From: a virus | Lineage: Duplodnaviria; Caudoviricetes | IMG/VR virus record: IMGVR_UViG_3300037424_003005 | Span: 1 to 24,046 of that record | Strand: one strand, 5' to 3' | DNA: 24,046 bases | Shown here: positions 3,468-22,997 of the stretch, piece after piece | Numbering within the stretch: position 1 is the first letter of the stretch | Layout of the letters: each line of letters opens with the position of its first letter | Translations under genes and position numbers: made by a program | Notes under the pieces: generated by a model | The model's database searches: none | Told to the model about the DNA's origin: nothing | Seen by the model: only the letters and a program-made list of their open reading frames with translations

Positions 3468-5954
3468 TTAACTCCTTGTCGTCAATGCGACGGTGCCGTC
3501 GGCAGTGGTGAGGATGTAGCCTCCGGCATTATCGGTGAGGTATTTCATGGCGAAAGCGGCATCGCCGGCACCCTGGCTGCGACAGGTGAGGCGGATGACA
3601 TCGGCGCGGCTGATATCGCCGGGGGAGAAGCCCGCCGACTGGATCTCGGCAACCAGCCCGCCAAGAAAATCGAGGGTGACAGGGTCAGCGAATTCGAGTT
3701 CGCTGTGGTTGAGGAAGATCTCGAAATCATGCAGCCAGTAGCGGCGGGCATATTCGCCGAGGTAGAAGGAGAGGAGATCGGCGGCCATAGTGGCGTCGCG
3801 CACCAGGTCAAAACGGAAGAGTTCGGGGCGTTCGTTTTCGCCGTAGTCGGTGATCGACTGGCTGTCGCTGTCGACCAGGGCGGCGCGGTAAGCGCTGTCG
3901 TCACTGCCGGCGGATGAGGGGTCGCGATCATAAAGGAGATTGATCTTGTTGATGATCTCGCTCATCGCCGCCTTGCGGCGCGAGAGGGTGAGGCGGCCGC
4001 CGCTCAGGCGGATGGCGGGGATGGCCTTGACCGGGGTGAGGGTGTCGGGGCGGACGATGAGTTGACCAGTGCCGAGGCGCAGGCGGAAATAAGCGCGGCA
4101 CTGGAAGGCGAGGCTGTCGAGCAGATCGATGCCGCGTTGGTAGTCGGTGATGGCGCCGTCGATACGGTAGCTGGCGGGGAAGCTGCCGATCTGAGTGAGG
4201 GTGTAAGGGCCGCTGCGGCTGAGGAGATCGGCGCAGACGGCGGCAGGGGTGGAAAGGGTGCCGGTGACATCGACGAGGACGACATCACTGACCAGGGTAT
4301 TGGCGCCGGAGTTACCGGAGATGGTGACGGTGCCGCTCTTGCTGACGCTGCCGGAGCGGCTGGCGGATCCGGACTTGGCGGCGCTGCCGGACTTGCTGGC
4401 ACTGCCGGACTTCGTAGCGCTGCCGGACTTGCTGCTCGCCTGAGCAACCGAGGTGGTGCCGGCATCATAAACAACTTGCCGGGAGGCGGAGTTGATCGTC
4501 AGTTGGGCGGTCCCGCCCGAGGCCGGAGTGACGCGAAACTCAGGAACATAGGTGCCTGAGACCGTTACCACATGGCTGCCACCGGTACCAACCGAGACCT
4601 CACTACTCCCGTCAAAAATCTTGACCAGCGGCGCACTGCCGGTATAGGACATCCCCCAGGTATAGGTGTAAGTGGCGACGCTGACGCCCGACAACGAGCC
4701 GAAGGTCGGTGCCACGGAGAAATAGCTGCCGGTGGAGGCGCTGGTCCAGGGGACGCCGGTGGCGAACTGCACCAGGGTCGAGGAGACGGTATGCCCATGG
4801 GTCGGGTTACTGATGCCGATGGTATCACTGACGCCGATGGTATCGGCAACGCTGATGGTGTCGTTAACGGCGATACTGTCAACGATGCTAAGGGCGTCAT
4901 TAACGGCAATGCCGTCATTAACGAGGAGATCGACGGCCTGCGAGGCGGTGATATAGCTGGGCAGGGTAATGCAGGCGCGGCCGGGATAATCGGGATGCTG
5001 GCCGCCGAGAGCACCGACGGCGACCACGGCACTGGTGCCGCTGCCGAGATAGCGGCTGGCAATGGCGGAAATCTCAACTTCCGCTGCGCCGACGACGCCG
5101 TAAACTTTTGGAATGCTGCTCACCGCATGATCGGCGAGCAGGTAGACATATTCGCCCAACACCTGCCAGGCGATCGCCCCCTTGGTGTGGATCGTCGCCA
5201 GGGTGGTATTGACACCGCGGGTCACGGTCAAGGTGTCGCCGCTCACAGCGCTGATCGTCATCTCTTCATCGTCAACAGTCAGGGTCATGCCGGCGCTCAG
5301 GCCGGTGGCATCAGAGACAATGACGCTGGTAGTGCTGGCATTGATGGCGCTGGGAAGGCTGGTCATAATTCCCGACGCCACGGCCAAGGCCGGCAAGCGG
5401 CGGACGCTGCCATAAACGAGGGGAATGACCTTGCCGACATCGTCGGGGTCAGCAGTCGGGAAGTCAGCGCGGGTGATTTTAGTACCGAGATACTTTTGCA
5501 GGCGGATGGCTTCGTCTTCGAGGCCGATGCGCACAATCGTTTCGTCGGGGATCTCGACCGGATCACGGACAAAGAAGCGCGCCATCTCCTGGGGCGGATC
5601 GCTGGCGGGGTCGAGATCGCGGAACCAAAGATAAAGGCTGACGGCGGTGCGCTCGAAATCGCTGGCGACGGCGAGATCGGCCATGTTCGGCGCGCTATCC
5701 GGATCAATCAGGCAATCGATGGCGAGGTCGCTGAGGCGGATTTCACTCAGTTCGCCGCTGATCCCTTCGGTGACTTGTCCCCAGGAAGAGATCCAGGCCT
5801 TGGTGGTGATGCCGCCCAGCCAGCTGGCGATGCTGAGGGCGAGGTCGCTGAGGTAATAGTCGACGCCGCCGACGGTCATTTTGATGATCCACAGCGGGCG
5901 GGCGCCGGTCAGTTTGTTTTTTTCTGCGGTGAAACCGGCAGGGAAGGTCTTCAT
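3468..5954 (-). CDS. Tail tip/baseplate hub protein with inserted repeat-flanked domain
   Basis: 828 aa; DVGKVIPLVYG hub motif, DDEEM..S..SG.TLTVTRG..T.A..H..GA module, internal hexad repeats; position after distal tail genes. Confidence 0.7.
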   Translation of the reverse strand: MKTFPAGFTAEKNKLTGARPLWIIKMTVGGVDYYLSDLALSIASWLGGITTKAWISSWGQVTEGISGELSEIRLSDLAIDCLIDPDSAPNMADLAVASDFERTAVSLYLWFRDLDPASDPPQEMARFFVRDPVEIPDETIVRIGLEDEAIRLQKYLGTKITRADFPTADPDDVGKVIPLVYGSVRRLPALAVASGIMTSLPSAINASTTSVIVSDATGLSAGMTLTVDDEEMTISAVSGDTLTVTRGVNTTLATIHTKGAIAWQVLGEYVYLLADHAVSSIPKVYGVVGAAEVEISAIASRYLGSGTSAVVAVGALGGQHPDYPGRACITLPSYITASQAVDLLVNDGIAVNDALSIVDSIAVNDTISVADTIGVSDTIGISNPTHGHTVSSTLVQFATGVPWTSASTGSYFSVAPTFGSLSGVSVATYTYTWGMSYTGSAPLVKIFDGSSEVSVGTGGSHVVTVSGTYVPEFRVTPASGGTAQLTINSASRQVVYDAGTTSVAQASSKSGSATKSGSASKSGSAAKSGSASRSGSVSKSGTVTISGNSGANTLVSDVVLVDVTGTLSTPAAVCADLLSRSGPYTLTQIGSFPASYRIDGAITDYQRGIDLLDSLAFQCRAYFRLRLGTGQLIVRPDTLTPVKAIPAIRLSGGRLTLSRRKAAMSEIINKINLLYDRDPSSAGSDDSAYRAALVDSDSQSITDYGENERPELFRFDLVRDATMAADLLSFYLGEYARRYWLHDFEIFLNHSELEFADPVTLDFLGGLVAEIQSAGFSPGDISRADVIRLTCRSQGAGDAAFAMKYLTDNAGGYILTTADGTVALTTRS
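4330..4437 (-). repeat. 18-bp period coding repeat (xxKSGS, six units)
   Basis: Recurrent gctgccggactt units encoding SSKSGS-ATKSGS-ASKSGS-AAKSGS-ASRSGS-VSKSGT. Confidence 0.85.
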
Positions 5955-6310
5955 ACCATCACCTCCAGATCGATCTGCAGGCGATGATGCGCGCCGACCG
6001 GGGTATGACGCAGGCGCGGGGCGGTGAGTTTAACCGTGCGGGAGACCTCGGCATGATCGACCCAGGTGAAGGGATAACGGACACCGAGAATCGCCGTAGC
6101 GACAAAGGCGCGCAGATCGGCGAGGACGCTAGCCGAGACCCGCGGGAAGGTGAGGCTGTGACTGGTGAGCACCTCACCTTTGCCGTAAACGATGACATTG
6201 CCGGCGCTGTCGGTCTCGCGCAGTTGCCGCGAGTCAATGCTTTTGGCAGCGGGCCGGATCGGATCGCAGTTGAATTGTACGGTCACGCCGTCAAAGACAA
6301 AACGGGTCAT
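5951..6310 (-). CDS. Distal/minor tail protein (gpM-like), paralog 2
   Basis: 119 aa; L.F......L.AF....G....FTW.D..R.V pattern; similar to the adjacent ORF. Confidence 0.6.
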   Translation of the reverse strand: MTRFVFDGVTVQFNCDPIRPAAKSIDSRQLRETDSAGNVIVYGKGEVLTSHSLTFPRVSASVLADLRAFVATAILGVRYPFTWVDHAEVSRTVKLTAPRLRHTPVGAHHRLQIDLEVMV

Positions 6311-6672
6311 GCGCTCTCCAACAGGTCAAGGGTGACGTTGTGCCGACCAAAGGCAATCTCAGTACTATTCAGTTGCGCCGTGGCGCAGCGGACGGTGTGC
6401 ACGACTCCGGCAAAATCGGTGTAGGTGAAGAGTTCGGCCATGCCCTTGACGACCTGCGCGAGGAAGATTTCGAGGGCGGCGAGATCGGCGCTGGCCATGC
6501 CCGACCATTGCAGGGTCAAGGGGCGCTCGATCGCATGCGGATCATAGCCGTAACGGGTACCGCCGGTGGCGCGGGCTTCGGCCTGCAACAGGTCAATTCC
6601 CCCGGCGGGGCGCAGCGGGTGGCGGCCAAAGAGCACCGAACCGCCAGCATGATCGAAGCGCGCCGCGGGCAT
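6307..6672 (-). CDS. Distal/minor tail protein (gpM-like), paralog 1
   Basis: 121 aa; L.W..M...DL..L..F.....KG....FTYTD..G..H.VR pattern; follows tape measure region. Confidence 0.6.
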   Translation of the reverse strand: MPAARFDHAGGSVLFGRHPLRPAGGIDLLQAEARATGGTRYGYDPHAIERPLTLQWSGMASADLAALEIFLAQVVKGMAELFTYTDFAGVVHTVRCATAQLNSTEIAFGRHNVTLDLLESA

Positions 6673-16496: not shown

Positions 16497-18094
16497 GCAG
16501 CAACCTCTTCCTTGTCTGAAAACGCATCTGAAATGGTCTTCTCAAAAATCGCATCTTCGGTCGTCTTCTCGAAGATCGGGTCTTTGGCTTCTTTGGAGGT
16601 CGGCGGCGTTGGATTGAGTCCGGCCTCTTTCAAGGTCTTGATCTCACGGCCGCGCTGCTTGACCTGCTGCTCCCAATCCTTGTTGCGCTTGGCGGCAATG
16701 TCAGCGAGGGTGGTGGTGCCGGCGTTGAGGCCCATGATGTCGGCGACCATCTCTTTGACCGGATCGACGTTGGTCTTCTCCGGGCCGACCCAGGTGGCGG
16801 CAGTGTATTCGGCGCGGGCGTCGTAAAAATTGGGGGCGCCTTTGGGCAGGACGATGCGGCCGGTCAAGACCGCCTCTTCAAAGAACATCTCCCAGATCAC
16901 CCGGCAATAACGGTTGACCAGCCAATCCTGATAAAGTTCGAAGACCCGCCAGGCCTCCTGAAAGGCGGCGCGGGCACTGGAGTAGTTGACCTTGCTGAAG
17001 TCTTTGCTGACGACTTCGTAGGGCATGCCGGTAGCGGCGCCGATGGAGCGCAGCGCGGTCTCGACGAAGATCTGGAAGGAGTTGCCGGGGCGATCGCCGG
17101 TGAGAGCGTGCGGTTTTTCGTTGGCGTTGCCGTAGAGGACCGAGCCCGGGGGGATCTCGCGGTAATGATGGACATCGGCGCTGGGGGCGCCGGGGACCTT
17201 GTGAACGCCGGGGAGGGCGGTGGCATCGTAGGGGGACGACTTTTCGATGAAGACCGGGAAGGAGGCGGCGACAATGGCGCCGATCAGCTCGTAGTCGAGA
17301 TAGTCGGCAAAGTTACGGAAGAAGCTCATCGCCGGGGCAAGGACGCCGCCGAGGCCGCGCACCTGTTCGGGGAGCTTGGCGTGGAAGCCGTGCAGCACCA
17401 CCGGGCGGTGACCGCGTTTGGGCGGGAGTTCGACAAAGCTGCTGGAGGCCATGCTAGTGAGGAGTTGTCCATCCGCCGGGTTGGCGATGAAGTAGCCGGT
17501 CGGCTCGCCCAAGGGGCCAAGGCGGATGCCGTCACGAATGGAGGAGGCGGCGGTGTAGTCTGACGGGGAGCGCAAGCGCATGGGGTCGAGGACCTGCAGG
17601 GCGAGGCGATAGCGGCGCGACGGATCGTCGAGCATCAACGGCAGATTGAGAAATTCGCCGTTGACCAGCTGGCTCCAAAGGTTCTGAAACTGGATACCGT
17701 AAAAGTCGGAGACGCCGCGGCAATCGGCTTCGATGTTCCAGAGTTCAAATTCCCACTCGGCCTGTTCGGCAATGGCGGTGGCTTCTTCTTCGCTGATCCC
17801 CAGGCGCTTGAAGTTGGGCTTGCTCTGCGGCCAGAGGCCGGGGCCGACGGCATTGACGCTGATCGCTTCGATGATCGAACAGGCATGGGGATCGTTGGCG
17901 ACCAGATCGGCGGAGCGCTTGGCGAGGAGCTCGCGCTGGCTCCCTTCTTCACGGTAATTGATGCGGCGTGGGTTCCAGTTGCCGAGGCTACCGGTATGTC
18001 CGCCGCCGCTGCGGGAGATAAGGGGCGCGCGGCCACCGGCGATGCTGGCGTTGGCGGCGCGGTTGGCGGCACGTTTGGCGGCGAAATCAGCCAC
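16493..18094 (-). CDS. Portal protein, lambda family
   Basis: RS.DLV.ND, QVRG, GMPYE...DFS.VNYSSARA, VDPVKE; start GTG 18094 with RBS GGAGGG. Confidence 0.95.
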   Translation of the reverse strand: MADFAAKRAANRAANASIAGGRAPLISRSGGGHTGSLGNWNPRRINYREEGSQRELLAKRSADLVANDPHACSIIEAISVNAVGPGLWPQSKPNFKRLGISEEEATAIAEQAEWEFELWNIEADCRGVSDFYGIQFQNLWSQLVNGEFLNLPLMLDDPSRRYRLALQVLDPMRLRSPSDYTAASSIRDGIRLGPLGEPTGYFIANPADGQLLTSMASSSFVELPPKRGHRPVVLHGFHAKLPEQVRGLGGVLAPAMSFFRNFADYLDYELIGAIVAASFPVFIEKSSPYDATALPGVHKVPGAPSADVHHYREIPPGSVLYGNANEKPHALTGDRPGNSFQIFVETALRSIGAATGMPYEVVSKDFSKVNYSSARAAFQEAWRVFELYQDWLVNRYCRVIWEMFFEEAVLTGRIVLPKGAPNFYDARAEYTAATWVGPEKTNVDPVKEMVADIMGLNAGTTTLADIAAKRNKDWEQQVKQRGREIKTLKEAGLNPTPPTSKEAKDPIFEKTTEDAIFEKTISDAFSDKEEVAA

Positions 18095-18335
18095 GGTAGA
18101 CCCTCCCTTGGATGGATTGGGGACCGTTGCCGACACTGGCCTGCACGCGCATGGCCTGCAACTTGTCGAGGCGGGCCTCGATCTGCGGCAGGGCTGGACG
18201 GCGCACGGTAGTGCGCGAGCCGTCGGGAAGGGCGACGGTGTACTCCTCGCTGATGGCGAGGGCACGGATGGCACTCTTCCAGAGTTCGATTTCGGTGGTG
18301 AGTTCGGCTGCGGTGTAGAGCGGCGTCGTTGTCAT
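18087..18335 (-). CDS. Head completion protein (gpW-like)
   Basis: 82 aa; helix-hairpin-helix pattern (EY......R...R..L..I); overlaps the portal start. Confidence 0.75.
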   Translation of the reverse strand: MTTTPLYTAAELTTEIELWKSAIRALAISEEYTVALPDGSRTTVRRPALPQIEARLDKLQAMRVQASVGNGPQSIQGRVYRG

Positions 18336-18342
18336 GGCGCCT

Positions 18343-18412
18343 AGGATGGGGGAGTTTTTTGCAAAAGTCGTGGACGTGGTGGACGTGCTGGACGTGGTGG
18401 ACGTGCTGGACG
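18343..18412 (-). promoter_or_regulatory. Putative activator-dependent late promoter with 9-bp tandem repeats
   Basis: TGGACGTG(G/C) x4 plus TGGACG at 18371-18412; weak -10-like CATCCT (18348-18343) 7 nt before the gpW ATG. Confidence 0.55.
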
Positions 18413-18443
18413 GTTTTTAATGTGGGGAGGGCGTTTTTTTTGC

Positions 18444-18473
18444 AAAAAAAGCCCCCGGCGGGGTGGCCGGGGC
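18444..18473 (-). terminator. Rho-independent terminator separating the early/integron block from late genes
   Basis: Minus strand GCCCCGGC-caccc-cGCCGGGGGC followed by T7. Confidence 0.75.
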
Positions 18474-18609
18474 GTTTAAGGATGAAGGATGAATTATGAG
18501 GGATGAAGGCGGCAGGATCAACATGTGCGGCTGATCCGACAGAGGGTTTGTGCTCTGCAAAACTCCCAAAACAGGGCGTCTTAAACGGGGCTTCCCGTCC
18601 ACATGTAGT

Positions 18610-18852
18610 CTAGCCTGCCACCTTCAACTCATGATGAATACAACCGAAGAGCGGCCCAGTACCGACGGCATCGTAACAATTCAGCGCGTCTAAATCCTGT
18701 CGCTCTGGGTCGGTGTATGATCCATAGCCAACTTTTGGATGCCCGCAACATTTATGACTTGGCCCTCCAGGAATATCCATCGACCGGTTGGCTTCGTCTT
18801 CTTCAACCTCGGGATCGAATCCCCACCATTGGCAGGAGCTACAGGTGTTCAT
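18610..18852 (-). CDS. Cys/His-rich small hypothetical protein
   Basis: 80 aa; TCSSCQWW...C.HP...TGPLFGCIHHE, a phage early-gene type; ATGA overlap. Confidence 0.7.
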   Translation of the reverse strand: MNTCSSCQWWGFDPEVEEDEANRSMDIPGGPSHKCCGHPKVGYGSYTDPERQDLDALNCYDAVGTGPLFGCIHHELKVAG

Positions 18853-19100
18853 TCGGTCTCCTCCGGTTCAAGCGGCGAACCGATGGGGCCGGCCCACTCA
18901 CCGCCAGCATAAGCCTCCCGAGCGACATCACCTGGCCAAGCATCTGGCTGTTCCCACAAATATAGAACATCTGAAGAATAGATACCTTCTTCAGTCACCA
19001 GCAAGACCTCCGGATCAACGCCTTTCTCCCACCGAAACCAATACCATCCAGGACGGTCCGGGGCAGGCAGAAAGGTCTTTGTCCATCTCAATTCCATCAC
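18849..19100 (-). CDS. Trp-rich hypothetical phage protein
   Basis: 83 aa; WT...P..PGWYW.R...EWAGPI..P pattern. Confidence 0.7.
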   Translation of the reverse strand: MMELRWTKTFLPAPDRPGWYWFRWEKGVDPEVLLVTEEGIYSSDVLYLWEQPDAWPGDVAREAYAGGEWAGPIGSPLEPEETE

Positions 19101-19107
19101 TCCGCCT

Positions 19108-19263
19108 CTATTTCTTCGCTTTCACCAACTGTTCATAGGCATCACGGATCATCATCCGCAGCCAGCCGCTGGCGGGGATGCCCCGGCTCGCGGCGACCTT
19201 CTTGAGCAGCTCCGCCTCTTCGTCCGAATATCTCAGCTGGAAAATCTTATCCTTGTTTCCCAC
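19108..19263 (-). CDS. Ribbon-helix-helix (CopG/Arc-like) regulator, 51 aa, absent from the ORF track
   Basis: GTG start with RBS AGGAGG; MGNKDKIFQLRYSDEEAELLKKVAASRGIPASGWLRMMIRDAYEQLVKAKK. Confidence 0.75.
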   Translation of the reverse strand: MGNKDKIFQLRYSDEEAELLKKVAASRGIPASGWLRMMIRDAYEQLVKAKK

Positions 19264-19324
19264 GGTCTCACCTCCTGGCAGATGTCATTACATTTACCAC
19301 CAGCCATTGACGGTGGTCAAGCAG

Positions 19325-20410
19325 TTACAGGCTTCCTCCGCAATGCGGACAGGTCTTAAAATCTCCGACACCATAGAGACGATCAACGGGCGACACCACC
19401 CGACGGAAGCGGGTCCTTGCCACATGGAGATAACCCATCGTCGTTTTCAGATCCTTGTGGCCCATCAGATCCTGGACCATCTTCACGTCCTCGCCGTTTT
19501 CCAGAAGATGCGTGGCGAACGAATGGCGCAGGGAGTGCGGCCCGGCGTGCTTGTAGACCTTGGCGCGAATCATCGCGGCGTGAAACGCTTTCTGCATAAG
19601 CGACACGTCAAGGTGCCATCGACCTTCCTGCCTGGCCTCTTTGTCAACCCATCGTGAGCCCGCAGGGAAAACCCACTGCCAAGCCCACGACTTTGCCGCA
19701 TTCGGGTATTTTTTGGCGAGAGCATCGGGCATGAAGACCGCGCCCCACCCTTCGGCCAGATCGCGCTCCCATAACCGCTTGGCATATTCGATCTGAGCGC
19801 GTAAGGGCTCGACATCGTGCTTCGGGAGCGGCAGCGTTCTGGCATTCAGGGCTTTGCTGGATTGCAGGATGATCATCTCTTGACCGAAATCGATATCCTT
19901 GATCCTGAGCGTCAGGCAGTCGACCTCAACCCGTAGGCCATCGCCATACATGAGATCCGCTGCCAACAGATAGGGATTCGACAACTCAGCCAGGACTCTC
20001 TTTACTTCGTCTTCAGATAAGACGACGGGGATATGCTTTGCCTTCTGTGCCCTCGGGGCATCGATCAAACCGACGTCATGATGCAGAATCTTGCCGTAAA
20101 AATACAAAAGCGCATTCAGCATGACATTCTGAGTGGATGCTGCTACGTGTTTTTCCATGGCGGCATAGGTTAAAAATTCACGGATCGCAGCTTCATCGGT
20201 CAGAAGCGAATGGCGCTTAATCTTAAAATCGAGGAACTCGGCCACATAGCCACAATAAGAATCTTCCGTGCTGGGGGCTAAATGCTCCAGGCGTATCTCC
20301 CGGTGCATCGCCTGCAATAGTGCGTCAAAATCGGTCAGCTTGCTTGATTTGATTGGTACGTTATCGGGCCTTTTTTCGGCATAACGCCTTTGACTCCAAC
20401 GACTTCCCAT
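19325..20410 (-). CDS. intI: Integron integrase (tyrosine recombinase with the integron-specific I2 insertion)
   Basis: [41 protein letters not shown]...[35 protein letters not shown]; RBS AGGAGG. Confidence 0.93.
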
Positions 20411-20446
20411 GACTGACCTCCTTTCGTGATAAGACGCAATCTTGCG

Positions 20447-20465
20447 GGATAATCAGTAGTTAGGG
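20447..20465 (+). other. attI-like simple site
   Basis: L box GGATAAT, 5-bp spacer CAGTA, R box G^TTAGGG; about 40-55 bp upstream of the intI start and divergent from it; same geometry as the attI1 core. Confidence 0.75.
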
Positions 20466-20654
20466 TGATTTTAGCCGTTTTAGCTGGGCGTAGAGTTCGA
20501 CCCATGCAAAAGCAATCGCCCTCGGCGGTCGGCCGTTTGGCCCGTCATCCTCCCAGCTCTGCCAGGTGCGGTACTTCTCCCCGGTCAGGCGGGCCGCTTC
20601 TGCCATTGAGAGGCCCGTTGCTTCACGGGCCTCCCTGAGATCCTTGGCGGTCAC
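20460..20654 (-). CDS. XRE-family HTH protein
   Basis: DLREAREATGLSMAEAARLTG..YRTWQSWE; its stop codon is the TTA of the R box. Confidence 0.85.
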   Translation of the reverse strand: MTAKDLREAREATGLSMAEAARLTGEKYRTWQSWEDDGPNGRPPRAIAFAWVELYAQLKRLKSP

Positions 20655-20867
20655 TTATGCCACCTCATCCACTTCGCCGGTCTCAATCAGTTCGTCAACC
20701 TCTTCGCGGCTGAGCTGCCAGCGCTCGATTGCATTTTTGCCGTCGTCGTTGATACTGCTTTCTTCGGTCGGCCAGAGAATGCAGTCGCCAGAGTCGTGCA
20801 GCCACAAAAAAGAATCTTCACCGGCTGCGGTTTTAGCTTCCAGAATTTCATTAACGGTCGTGGTCAT
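20655..20867 (-). CDS. Small acidic hypothetical protein (70 aa)
   Basis: ATG 20867 with RBS AGGAGA; abuts the HTH gene. Confidence 0.7.
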
Positions 20868-20910
20868 GTCTGATCTCCTTGGGTTATTTGTTCCGCTCTT
20901 CTTGATTTTA

Positions 20911-20959
20911 ATTATACGCACATTGTGAACGATTGCAAGTGAAATAATTCACTTTGTGC
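20911..20959 (-). promoter_or_regulatory. Sigma70-type promoter with paired operators inside cassette 1
   Basis: -35 TTGCAA (20938-20933), 16 bp, -10 TATAAT (20916-20911); inverted repeats GCACAttGTGAA (20918-20929) and TTCACttTGTGC (20948-20959). Confidence 0.7.
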
Positions 20960-20999
20960 ATTTTTATTTTAGAGCGGTGACAATCACCCTAATCAGTAG

Positions 21000-21173
21000 T
21001 TATGGCGCTCACCCCTTAATCACCGTTATCAAAAGTGCCAAGCATATCAGACCTATCCACCCTAGCGGAGTGCAAAACAGCAAAATAAGAAAAGCCCAAA
21101 ATCCATCCATTACTAACTCCTATCCGCGCCATAACAAGGCGCTCATGCGGACTAGCCGCATATCTGAAAATCG
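21000..21173 (+). mobile_element. Gene cassette 2
   Basis: GTTATGGCGC at 20999 is complementary to GCGCCATAAC at 21126. Confidence 0.8.
21009..21110 (-). CDS. 33-aa hydrophobic membrane micropeptide, absent from the ORF track
   Basis: RBS AGGAG; MDGFWAFLILLFCTPLGWIGLICLALLITVIKG; fills the cassette exactly. Confidence 0.7.
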   Translation of the reverse strand: MDGFWAFLILLFCTPLGWIGLICLALLITVIKG

Positions 21174-21179
21174 TTATGG
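21129..21179 (+). other. attC site (short, 51 bp)
   Basis: R'' CCATAAC, AAGGC, L'' GCTCATGC (extra base at position 4), GG-ACTAG-CC, L' GCATATC, R' GTTATGG. Confidence 0.75.
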
Positions 21180-21450
21180 CGCTAACTTTTCGGCAGACAT
21201 TCCGCCAAGTTCTGAACCCAGCAAGGCCCAAGACTTCTGTTGATCTGATAAATAAGTTCTTTTGCCTCTTCTCCTGACTGCAACTCCGACAGGATGTAGG
21301 ATATGGGCATTGGACTTCCATCTCGGAGAATTGCCGAACCATCGCCGCATATTCCTTCTGAAAACTCATGCTTCATCTGTCTACCTCCCGCGCCATAACA
21401 AGGCGCTGCAAGTCGGACCGGCAAAGAGCGCCGGCCCTTGAGCTTAGTGG
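21174..21450 (+). mobile_element. Gene cassette 3
   Basis: GTTATGGCGC at 21173 is complementary to GCGCCATAAC at 21390. Confidence 0.85.
21182..21376 (-). CDS. Small hypothetical protein (64 aa)
   Basis: ATG 21376 with RBS GGAGGT right next to R''; MKHEFSEGICGDGSAILRDG. Confidence 0.75.
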   Translation of the reverse strand: MKHEFSEGICGDGSAILRDGSPMPISYILSELQSGEEAKELIYQINRSLGPCWVQNLAECLPKS

Positions 21451-21456
21451 TTAGAT
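21393..21456 (+). other. attC site (64 bp)
   Basis: R'' CCATAAC, AAGGC, L'' GCTGCAAG, CCGGC/GCCGG stem, L' CTTGAGC, TTAGTG, R' GTTAGAT. Confidence 0.9.
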
Positions 21457-21669
21457 TGCTTCTTCCAGCGCTTTTTCAATATCTGCACTGACTCTATCCA
21501 GAATCATCCTGGCCGGGCTGCGACCTTCGATTTCCCGCGATCGCAATTCAAAAATTTTTGCAGCCGCGAGCATCCCCGCTTTAAATGCTTCACTGGCATC
21601 AACCCTGTAAAGCCTATAATGCGCAAATTTTACTTCAGGCGAATCAAACCATTCATCAAACACGCTCAT
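21451..21669 (-). CDS. Small hypothetical protein (72 aa)
   Basis: ATG 21669 with RBS GGAGGT; MSVFDEWF...EAFKAG; its stop TAA is the TTA of the R' box. Confidence 0.75.
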   Translation of the reverse strand: MSVFDEWFDSPEVKFAHYRLYRVDASEAFKAGMLAAAKIFELRSREIEGRSPARMILDRVSADIEKALEEAI

Positions 21670-21783
21670 TGCTCTACCTCCGCAATCTAACAAAATAATG
21701 CAGGCGGACCGAATGACCGTCTGCGGGTCTCGAAAATCTCTGCGGTTCGCGTCTATTTCGTCGCGGTCCGCTGATCAAATGCG
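21451..21783 (+). mobile_element. Gene cassette 4
   Basis: GTTAGATTGC at 21450 is complementary to GCAATCTAAC at 21682. Confidence 0.85.
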
Positions 21784-21789
21784 TTATGA
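21685..21789 (+). other. attC site (105 bp)
   Basis: R'' ATCTAAC, AAAAT, AAT(G)CAG(G)CGGACCG pairing with CGGTCCGCTGATC, AAATGC, R' GTTATGA. Confidence 0.88.
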
Positions 21790-21790
21790 C

Positions 21791-21979
21791 TCACCCGTTC
21801 TCCTGATAGGTCGGTTTGAGAGTGTAGCGCCCTTCGCCGTCTTTGATCAGCTTGGCGCCGACGGCTTTGGGGTTGGTGGAGGCCAGGGAGTCAACGAAGT
21901 CCTCGGCGGTGAAGCCGACCGGGACGTGGTGCTCGCGGCCCTGGAATTTGATGATGATGTCGGTTTGTTGTTGGGGCAT
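21791..21979 (-). CDS. Small protein ending in Gly, ubiquitin-like/PRTRC protein C-like candidate
   Basis: 62 aa from ATG 21979 (RBS AAGGAA); beta-beta-helix-beta-beta pattern ending YTLKPTYQENG. Confidence 0.5.
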   Translation of the reverse strand: MPQQQTDIIIKFQGREHHVPVGFTAEDFVDSLASTNPKAVGAKLIKDGEGRYTLKPTYQENG

Positions 21980-22046
21980 GGTTTGTTTCCTTTCTCTCAA
22001 ATCGGCAAATTGCGCAATTTGGCAAACTGAACATTTATGCTTGAGC

Positions 22047-22070
22047 GAACGCGGCATGCCGAGCCCCTAC
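22047..22070. repeat. Degenerate GTAG-family REP
   Basis: ...CGGCATGCCGAGCCCCTAC, similar to 13302-13325. Confidence 0.55.
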
Positions 22071-22074
22071 GTGG

Positions 22075-22221
22075 TCAAAGGTCTTTCTTCCTCAAGACCT
22101 GGTGGCACTTGCCGCAGACGAGGTCTGTTTCCGTAAAATATCTGTCGCATACCGGAAGATGATCGCACTCCGGAGGCTGCTGATCTTCCTGTTGTCGGGT
22201 GGCGTATTCGAAAAGATCCAT
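22075..22221 (-). CDS. 48-aa possible zinc-binding protein, absent from the ORF track
   Basis: MDLFEYATRQQEDQQPPECDHLPVCDRYFTETDLVCGKCHQVLRKKDL; starts 2 nt after the upstream stop. Confidence 0.55.
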   Translation of the reverse strand: MDLFEYATRQQEDQQPPECDHLPVCDRYFTETDLVCGKCHQVLRKKDL

Positions 22222-22223
22222 GC

Positions 22224-22997
22224 TCAGAATGCGCTCATCTCATCTTCGACAGGCGCCGGATCGGCGGCGGGCTCTCCGGCGGAACGGGCGGTGCGGGTGG
22301 CTTCACGCACCTGCTTTTCGATCTCGACCAGCAGGGCGGCGCGATCGGCGGGCGACAGGGCGGCGCTGGCGACTTTTTCGGGGATGACTGCGTCGCCGAC
22401 GGAGATGGTGCGGGTGATCATCGTTGGCAACTGGACGCGGCCGGGAGTGAGTTGGGCCGGGTCGATCTTGAAGTGGTAGGCGACTTGGACACGGGTCTCG
22501 GACATGGGGTTTCTCTCCTTTGGGTTGGTTTGTTTCTCGATACAGTGAAAATTTTTCGGCCGGCCGGGTTTTAAATCGATCCAACCTGCCACCATTCCCT
22601 GCTGCCGATCGTGACCGCGGGCATAAGTTCGGGCAAATCGTAACTTCCATGCGCCGAAATTCTCCGGAGACGGCAATAACCCACAGGGGAAGAGGGTCAT
22701 GAGGCTCAACGCCAGAGCATCACACTCCCGGATCCACCAGCGCTCGTTGATGGTGCGGATGTAGAGATGCCAGCCACCATAGATCCAGCCAGGTACGAAG
22801 AATATCCAAACGTGAGCGGCCCGGCGAGTCGGCCCGTCACACCGTAAAACGCGGGCCAGATGCTTCCGCTGCCTGGCGATTTTATTGGCCCGGATCTCCG
22901 CATAGGTGACAGGCTCTCCATTGACGATGCAGGCGGTCTCCGGGGGCCAGTTGAAACCCATGCTGCGGGCGAAGGATCGCATCATGAGGGTGGCCAT
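22224..22997 (-). CDS. Hypothetical protein, probably two genes in one frame (internal start at 22505)
   Basis: TAATG overlap with the ParB stop; Trp-rich N-terminal half; internal RBS AAGGAG and ATG 22505. Confidence 0.55.
   Translation of the reverse strand: MATLMMRSFARSMGFNWPPETACIVNGEPVTYAEIRANKIARQRKHLARVLRCDGPTRRAAHVWIFFVPGWIYGGWHLYIRTINERWWIRECDALALSLMTLFPCGLLPSPENFGAWKLRFARTYARGHDRQQGMVAGWIDLKPGRPKNFHCIEKQTNPKERNPMSETRVQVAYHFKIDPAQLTPGRVQLPTMITRTISVGDAVIPEKVASAALSPADRAALLVEIEKQVREATRTARSAGEPAADPAPVEDEMSAF

Follow-up and report, generated by a model that had tools for sequence, protein, structure and literature searches.

A tailed-phage integron whose captured genes all run against their attC sites, and its counterparts in other phage contigs

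In integrons, the integrase IntI recombines the bottom strand of attC, which fixes the direction of cassette insertion, and integron theory holds that this strand choice serves the insertion of promoterless genes in line with the cassette promoter Pc (PMC5027507; here and below, citations refer to the accessible portions of each paper). How should an array be read in which the sites keep this polarity and the genes do not? The question is raised by IMG/VR record IMGVR_UViG_3300037424_003005, a tailed phage (Caudoviricetes) whose entire 24,046-nt sequence, hereafter the window, includes an integron integrase gene (intI), an attI site, and four gene cassettes. This phage-resident integron has the usual attI and attC polarity, and every captured gene is reversed, i.e., co-directional with intI and with the phage genes. 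The same architecture recurs in phage contigs with diverse IntI, its cargo is of phage type, and its cassettes are shared as an open reading frame (ORF) together with the hairpin on the start-codon side.

The window contains the parts by which an integron is recognized, namely an IntI-type tyrosine recombinase, an attI beside its gene, and attC sites delimiting cassettes. The intI gene (19325..20410, minus strand) is intact and encodes a 361-aa integron integrase (TIGR02249, 335 bits vs. a cutoff of 265) that is 84% identical to the IntI of another phage contig, L001. Six residues which we take to be catalytic (R160, K186, H292, R295, H318, and Y327) are invariant across 25 aligned relatives. 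The attI simple site (20447..20465, plus strand; L box, 5-nt spacer, R box; crossover G at 20459) lies 48 nt from the intI start and gave no hairpin on folding. Three attC sites were called on the plus strand, closing cassette 2 (21129..21179; 5-nt left spacer and an atypical 8-nt right spacer; heuristic score 19.6), cassette 3 (21393..21456; 5- and 6-nt spacers, extra base in the left arm; score 18.0), and cassette 4, the last in the array (21685..21789; 5-nt left and 6-nt right spacers, crossover G at 21783; score 19.4). Base-shuffled windows yielded 1.6 attC matches scoring at least 17 and 0.2 scoring at least 19 per 24 kb.

An earlier note on this DNA had taken the plus strand to be the attC top strand, pointing to a 5-bp spacer and extra base(s) in the left arm of all three sites. 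The left spacer is indeed 5 nt in each, and the strand call is borne out by the heuristic scan, by a weight matrix, and by array topology. Trained on 84 bacterial sense-cassette attC sites with the R boxes excluded, and correct in 83 of 84 leave-one-locus-out tests, the matrix prefers the plus strand by 17.8, 19.4, and 12.9 bits at the three sites, a test that is partly circular because the sites were first chosen with a plus-strand model. Topology agrees independently, since the hairpin-less attI adjoins intI and a full hairpin stands at the far end of the array. In each cassette, the 3′ box pairs with the cassette’s own 5′ end at 10 of 11 nt. If this polarity were misread, the minus strand would be the top strand and the ORFs would be sense, as in an inverted-integrase integron or after top-strand mis-insertion. 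Inverted-integrase integrons are known (PMC4889954), and the attC hairpins here are near-palindromic, with fold energies so similar that minimum-energy folding of both strands did not separate them and the strand call is that of the matrix and the heuristic. A misreading is nonetheless extremely improbable: the two-strand scan gave no minus-strand parse of these sites; the matrix, far from scoring them better on the minus strand, favored plus by 13–19 bits here and did so in 100 of 101 viral antisense sites; the site adjoining intI is an attI without a hairpin; cassettes shared between phages carry their hairpin on the start side; and top-strand insertion would flip the hairpin along with the gene (PMC5027507).

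As the earlier note had reported, the five cassette ORFs are all on the minus strand, so that the sense orientation to attC that marks regular-type arrays is absent; they point the same way as intI and the phage genes on either side. The best ORF is on the minus strand in four of four cassettes (scores of 25.2 vs. −0.8, 4.2 vs. none, 6.8 vs. 3.0, and 15.2 vs. 0.6 for minus vs. plus). Motifs resembling a ribosome-binding site (RBS) adjoin R″ in cassettes 2–4, and stops lie in or beside the GTT box, as in the earlier note's description: the TAA stops at 20460 and 21451 are the TTA of a GTTA box, and those of cassettes 2 and 3 fall 9–10 nt from the crossover G. Cassette 2 holds a hydrophobic 33-aa ORF (21009..21110, minus strand), the sole fitting ORF of at least 25 aa, with an RBS-like motif upstream; it is the least certain of the five (codon score −1.8; a single weak match, to PHROG 37180, at E = 0.0011). 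The 64-aa product of cassette 3 (21182..21376, minus strand; RBS-like motif) belongs to no family and has one full-length homolog, P0031, at 73%; a candidate homolog in L004 was dropped as a weak 18-residue match. Cassette 4 encodes 72 aa (21451..21669, minus strand; codon score 12.5), with its TAA stop in the GTTA box; a homolog search returned only the protein itself, and its nearest Atlas clusters are viral with scores under 0.9, which is a lead only.

Orientation was then surveyed at IntI loci from viral contigs, metagenome and genome contigs, and two sampled genome groups, kept if their score on a profile of alignment A1 exceeded 250 and then collapsed at 95% identity to 96 viral loci including the window, 69 from bacterial genomes, and 15 from metagenomes. 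Genome controls were drawn with TIGR02249, which matched 47/121 and 53/151 genomes, and 60 stretches with upstream room were taken; 60 short loci (L346–L405) were excluded from all counts. Coding strands were assigned by a codon model; in 548 tests on held-out 240-nt stretches, it chose correctly 503 times and wrongly 17 times, and was unsure in the other 28. Upstream arrays were present at 57 of the 96 viral loci, and 49 of these were mostly antisense, with four sense and four tied (the window’s cassettes 1 and 2 are merged in its row). By comparison, the 38 arrays among the 69 bacterial-genome loci comprised 36 sense, none antisense, and two tied, and the six among 15 metagenome loci split evenly into two of each. 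Among the 39 viral loci without a called upstream array, 16 have <300 nt upstream. Restricting the comparison to arrays with at least two attC sites left 33 antisense, three sense, and two tied in viruses vs. 0, 25, and one in genomes (Fisher p = 4e-14, a value overstated by the shared ancestry of the loci). Counted per cassette, viruses had 111 antisense, 25 sense, and 25 unsure, and genomes 5, 96, and 17. Two rows, L018 and L302, are doubtful, having been counted on one upstream site yet having downstream arrays. Among the four sense viral loci, three (L031, L053, and L074), whose identifiers are presumably of the isolate-derived type, have long intI–attI gaps, and L053 and L074 group with bacterial IntI on the tree described below; all three look like host arrays beside prophages.

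Homology gave an independent check. When the longest ORF per strand in well-bounded viral cassettes was scanned against PHROG, 38 of 134 antisense ORFs matched vs. 6 of 134 sense ORFs, and four of the latter six fall in L053 and L074, two sense-type loci. By a hand count of the listing, the 38 include eight DNA methyltransferases and four PAPS-reductase-family proteins, along with a Mom-like protein, ThyX, an HNH nuclease, and an exonuclease. As judged from these family matches, the cargo consists mostly of phage accessory genes, DNA methyltransferases forming the largest named class, and the backward pool likely includes anti-restriction functions. The phage-adapted cassette pool proposed in the earlier note is well supported by the survey, by these antisense-strand matches to phage families, and by the co-directional flanks described below.

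Three cassettes are common to phages with different IntI, and in these the start-codon-side hairpin is 77–90% identical while both flanks are unrelated (~0.5); since that hairpin is kept and the flanks are not, the unit that moves consists of the gene and the hairpin on its start side. Among the 111 antisense viral cassettes, 46 have as their stop exactly the TTA of the GTTA box. The window’s attI site also precedes other, unrelated cassettes in L001 and L006, the antisense cassettes of L001 being wholly different behind the same attI. Different arrays behind one attI and cassettes shared among different neighbors are indirect signs of IntI-catalyzed recombination. Many phage attI regions (L030, L040, L042, L046, L051, and others) have a short inverted repeat directly upstream of the L box, 30 nt before the crossover. 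Contigs of two DNA sequencing runs displayed no joint at any cassette border, which is uninformative on excision. One of them, a sediment metagenome run that is a possible source of the record, holds two overlapping contigs (18478–21409 and 21380–22566) that span the array with zero differences and do not represent independent support. Other contigs of run X1 include a close variant of the last attC (window 21698–21786) with different sequence past the crossover, as well as a copy, about 90% alike, of the helix-turn-helix (HTH) gene of cassette 1 (window 20459–20633) whose match ends at G 20459.

An IntI tree of 97 loci with arrays (a quick, unrooted version without bootstrap, loci without arrays being left out) places the window in a 34-row group holding 30 antisense viral loci (Shimodaira–Hasegawa-like approximate likelihood ratio, SH-aLRT, 95). 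The antisense label changes eight times on this tree, five of them forced by strong branches, vs. 29 times for shuffled labels, and the layout likely had more than one origin or underwent repeated exchange. Members of the window’s IntI group (P0001–P0027) have an unusual stretch, GLRVEVDCL, following the first catalytic Arg, and in most close members the protein terminates with a CPHCG motif. The antisense pool could instead stem from an unsampled host lineage or from host islands, the phage having taken its array from a chromosome: captured chromosomal segments occur among known phage integrons (PMC9892861), an antisense call was made for 5 of 118 genome cassettes, and this phage is without an assigned host. 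We judge such an origin very unlikely, given that 0 of 38 genome arrays are mostly antisense, that cargo and neighbors are phage genes, that the antisense label spans several IntI groups, and that the arrays that do look host-captured (M16-3, L053, L074, and L031) are sense.

A second phage layout was found at 7 of 84 viral loci with room for it: the attC array lies downstream of intI and on the intI strand, and its genes are sense to attC and again co-directional with intI. It is represented by L018, L276, L283, L302, L303, L305, L306, L470 (GenBank virus Rctr41k), and L090, and supports co-direction as the constraint. The first gene past the array is co-directional with intI at 40 of 43 antisense viral loci, and the first gene after intI at 43 of 48. 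Of 175 flanking genes listed, 142 were scanned, and the matches include terminase, portal, primase, helicase, late activators, endolysin, and phage integrase; in L026 (4135–4892), an Avd-like gene from a diversity-generating retroelement sits with a tail gene directly past the array. The intI–attI gap has a median of 58 nt in viral antisense loci (n = 47) vs. 136.5 nt in genomes (n = 30; p = 4e-8), and a strong RBS directly inside R″ on the antisense strand was detected in 25 of 104 viral antisense vs. 2 of 84 genome cassettes. LexA boxes were called at 0 of 42 viral antisense and 2 of 27 genome loci, with an E. coli-type pattern too insensitive to show absence.

Taken together, these patterns suggest a scheme in which insertion would follow the standard reaction, IntI bringing the attC bottom strand into attI, so that each new gene would land at the 3′ end of a phage operon, directly ahead of intI and often with its stop in the GTTA box. 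There, a cassette would be expressed only if its gene were built backwards or had its own promoter, and selection would keep a phage-specific backward pool of, e.g., DNA methyltransferases, PAPS-reductase-family proteins, and ThyX. We consider landing, conditional expression, and selection in this form probable. In the window, cassettes 2–4 would be read from the upstream phage operon rather than from a cassette promoter at attI, and such read-through is plausible.

Alternatively, each antisense cassette might have its own promoter, inside the cassette or in the preceding attC hairpin, with no read-through and no gradient. This would suit the travel of the hairpin with the gene’s 5′ end and the conserved promoter-like site of cassette 1, and a Xanthomonas cassette opposing Pc is reported to lie outside its control (10.1101/2025.06.18.660453). 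This explanation is unlikely: a 10/12 sigma-70 match was found on the coding strand of only 6 of 104 antisense viral cassettes vs. 4 of 104 on the other strand; the RBS abuts R″ in cassettes 2–4, where the promoter scan of the window found no 10/12-type sigma-70 site; and the co-directional flanks at 40 of 43 loci would be unneeded.

Another possibility, compatible with read-through, is that the main selective reason lies in recombination rate. With genes co-directional with transcription, and likely with replication, an antisense build would make the recombining attC bottom strand both the non-template strand and the lagging-strand template, speeding up shuffling during phage growth. In this layout, the coding strand is the attC bottom strand, and bottom strands on the lagging-strand template fold and are excised more often (PMC5371416). 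However, no replication direction is assigned to this phage, and the sense arrays behind a co-oriented intI (7/84) have the opposite geometry, so that we rate recombination rate as the main reason quite unlikely, below promoters within each cassette.

Within the scheme of backward genes read from a phage operon, cassette 1 (20460..20999, plus strand; ends pairing at 10 of 11 nt) is an exception that stays inside the rule, a two-gene HTH unit predicted to be self-promoted and closed by a truncated copy of attI. The 64-aa HTH protein (20460..20654, minus strand), whose TAA stop codon coincides with the TTA in the R box of attI, has relatives at 69–92% in four viral loci and weak Pfam matches, under cutoffs, to HTH_25 and HTH_31. 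Its partner ORF (70 aa; 20655..20867, minus strand; codon score 20.7) matched nothing in Pfam, PHROG, NCBIfam, or PADLOC and differs among phages that have the HTH gene and promoter in common: across the window and L466–L468, the promoter block and HTH gene are kept and the gene(s) between are swapped per phage. For a comparison with toxin–antitoxin systems, there are two genes, a promoter-like site, and a partner that varies between phages, and the HTH protein is only weakly MqsA-like (E = 0.005). The predicted sigma-70-like promoter (20938..20911, minus strand; 10 of 12 matches, 16-nt spacer) faces the partner ORF and, past it, the HTH gene and intI, and its region is conserved in three other phage contigs, L466, L467, and L468. 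A terminator scan found no terminator-like site between it and intI, which it may drive as well. Short inverted repeats within the promoter block may represent an operator. In L027 (8391–8797), an antisense cassette likewise combines a small gene and an HTH gene with spare room upstream, and is not homologous to cassette 1 at first sight.

Since cassette 1 has its own conserved promoter-like site, its genes need no read-through, and expression from the upstream phage operon, which the earlier note had proposed for the array, is retained for cassettes 2–4 and dropped for cassette 1. The simple reversal of the expression gradient that had been expected from it is unlikely here, because the cassette 1 promoter is located at the end nearest attI and faces intI; a reversed gradient stands as a prediction of the scheme, blurred in this array by that promoter.

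The distal end of cassette 1 is a ΔattI junction (20982..21005, plus strand; crossover G at 20999), in which the cassette’s R″ arm is joined to the last 10 nt of attI: positions 20990–20999 are a 10-nt exact copy of attI, i.e., a direct repeat, and not an attC. In L466, L467, and L468, the HTH cassette ends in an intact attC that starts from the same R″ arm. The attC of cassette 1 was likely replaced by the attI tail via a crossover between an L box and R″, and attI can recombine at its L box too (PMC4792948). ΔattI-type cassettes, defined by this replacement of attC with a truncated attI tail, are known from class 1 and 2 integrons, where an L-box × R″ origin was proposed and excision and insertion were shown (PMC12901181). 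L001 provides a second ΔattI-like case. We rejected a new class of attI-type cassettes in favor of this known type: attI duplicates are rare (4/57 viral and 2/38 genome arrays), and arm pairing with the cassette start occurs only in the window and L001. Near-exact attI-tail copies without a pairing arm were also noted in or beyond arrays in L406 (G044), L464 (G187), L020, and L047.

Several points weigh against the scheme of backward genes served by read-through. The attC sites were called with a two-strand heuristic scan and a weight matrix rather than with the published covariance model. Eighty of the viral loci entered the survey through their similarity to the window’s IntI, and with no host assigned, the bacterial control may miss the host lineage. 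Not all viral cassettes conform: of 161, 25 were called sense and for another 25 the call was unsure. Mixed arrays also occur (L042, L063). The downstream sense layout shows that building genes antisense is one of two solutions. As to expression, a promoter-like site lies within cassette 1 itself, and a weak plus-strand promoter-like site (20426–20453; 9/12) overlaps attI, although the four sites found are not above the 2.5 expected by chance (standard deviation 1.5). Pc-like sites were detected at 1 of 42 viral antisense vs. 4 of 27 genome loci in a scan insensitive enough to make this poor evidence of Pc absence.

The setting of the array is that of a phage genome throughout, and all nameable genes of the window lie on the minus strand. 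Read from the right end, the order is a ParB-like gene, small genes, the array, intI, three small genes, and then a lambda-type portal, S49 peptidase, head decoration, major capsid, amidase, holin, and tail tube. The upstream phage genes (21791..24046, minus strand) run toward the array, and their promoter lies outside the window; they include a ParB-like gene reaching the contig end (22997–24046), with a weak PRTRC ParB match below cutoff, and a 62-aa ORF of no family (21791–21979), with its stop 8 nt away from the last crossover. A terminator-like hairpin with a T run (18453..18472, minus strand; 7 G-C pairs) follows intI and the three small genes and precedes the head genes, where it likely ends a transcription unit; this is a lead, as the eight terminator-like sites in the window do not exceed the shuffled mean of 6.3. 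Between this hairpin and the head genes lies a 9-nt tandem repeat in ~5 copies (18371–18415). No terminase was seen between intI and the head genes (18087–19325), and L001 has terminase genes directly after intI (3802–6661); in L020 and L043, a head–tail adaptor and portal follow intI, as in the window.

The attC strand rule, which in theory serves promoterless genes in line with Pc, here serves reversed genes, in dozens of phage contigs and several IntI groups. If this scheme holds, phages would own a gene-shuffling system rich in DNA-modification genes. Orientation would keep their cassette pool separate from that of bacteria, and a transferred cassette would be silent unless it had its own promoter. 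Cassette genesis becomes testable because 46/111 antisense genes end in the GTTA box and because cassette 1 exists in an attC and an attI-tail form. More broadly, we lean toward the view that tailed phages run an integron class of their own, with platforms rebuilt several times without a cassette promoter, inside a phage operon, and fed by a separate backward pool of phage genes such as methyltransferases and other DNA-modification genes. On that view, phages would have a library of counter-defense genes to shuffle, a mirror image of the anti-phage libraries that bacteria keep as cassettes, and the birth of cassettes would be exposed, with a stop codon doubling as a recombination box.

How does this compare with known systems? 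Integrons and clusters of attC sites lacking an integron integrase (CALINs) in phages were published in 2023 (PMC9892861), two integron layouts are recognized, regular and inverted-integrase (PMC13323075, PMC4889954), and single cassettes opposing Pc are known (10.1101/2025.06.18.660453). The accessible portions of PMC8618304, PMC11551772, and 10.1101/2022.09.11.507474 do not describe an antisense layout, and we found no account of antisense phage arrays in a literature search that left most subscription journals uncovered. With the published phage integrons, the window shares a phage location, presumably working attC sites, and DNA methyltransferase cargo; unlike it, the two examples checked, Shewanella phage M16-3 (with a LexA site) and the TJE1 CALIN, are sense, and antisense arrays go undescribed in the accessible text, although other CALINs in the figures or Supplementary File S1 may be antisense without comment (PMC9892861). 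With inverted-integrase (Treponema-type) integrons, it shares the common direction of intI and cassette genes (PMC4889954, PMC13323075). In those, however, attC and intI share a strand and the genes run sense to attC, whereas in the window attC is on the plus strand and intI on the minus strand, the array is upstream of intI, and the genes are antisense. Cassette 1 resembles the ΔattI-type cassettes of class 1 and 2 integrons in that attC is replaced by the last 10–11 nt of attI, which fits an L-box × R″ origin (PMC12901181). It differs from them in belonging to a phage with a non-class-1 IntI, in being antisense and apparently self-promoted, and in that three other phage contigs show its parent form, with attC intact. 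With the regular-type bacterial integron (PMC5027507, PMC11551772), the window shares the IntI family, an attI beside the intI start, attC geometry, attC polarity opposite to intI, and pairing of cassette 5′ and 3′ ends. It departs from that type in ORFs antisense to attC and co-directional with intI, in a platform inside a phage operon, in phage accessory cargo, and, across phage antisense loci, in an intI–attI gap about half as long with no clear Pc in an insensitive scan. The array is regular for its attC sites but not for its genes, and its layout is a variant of integrons.

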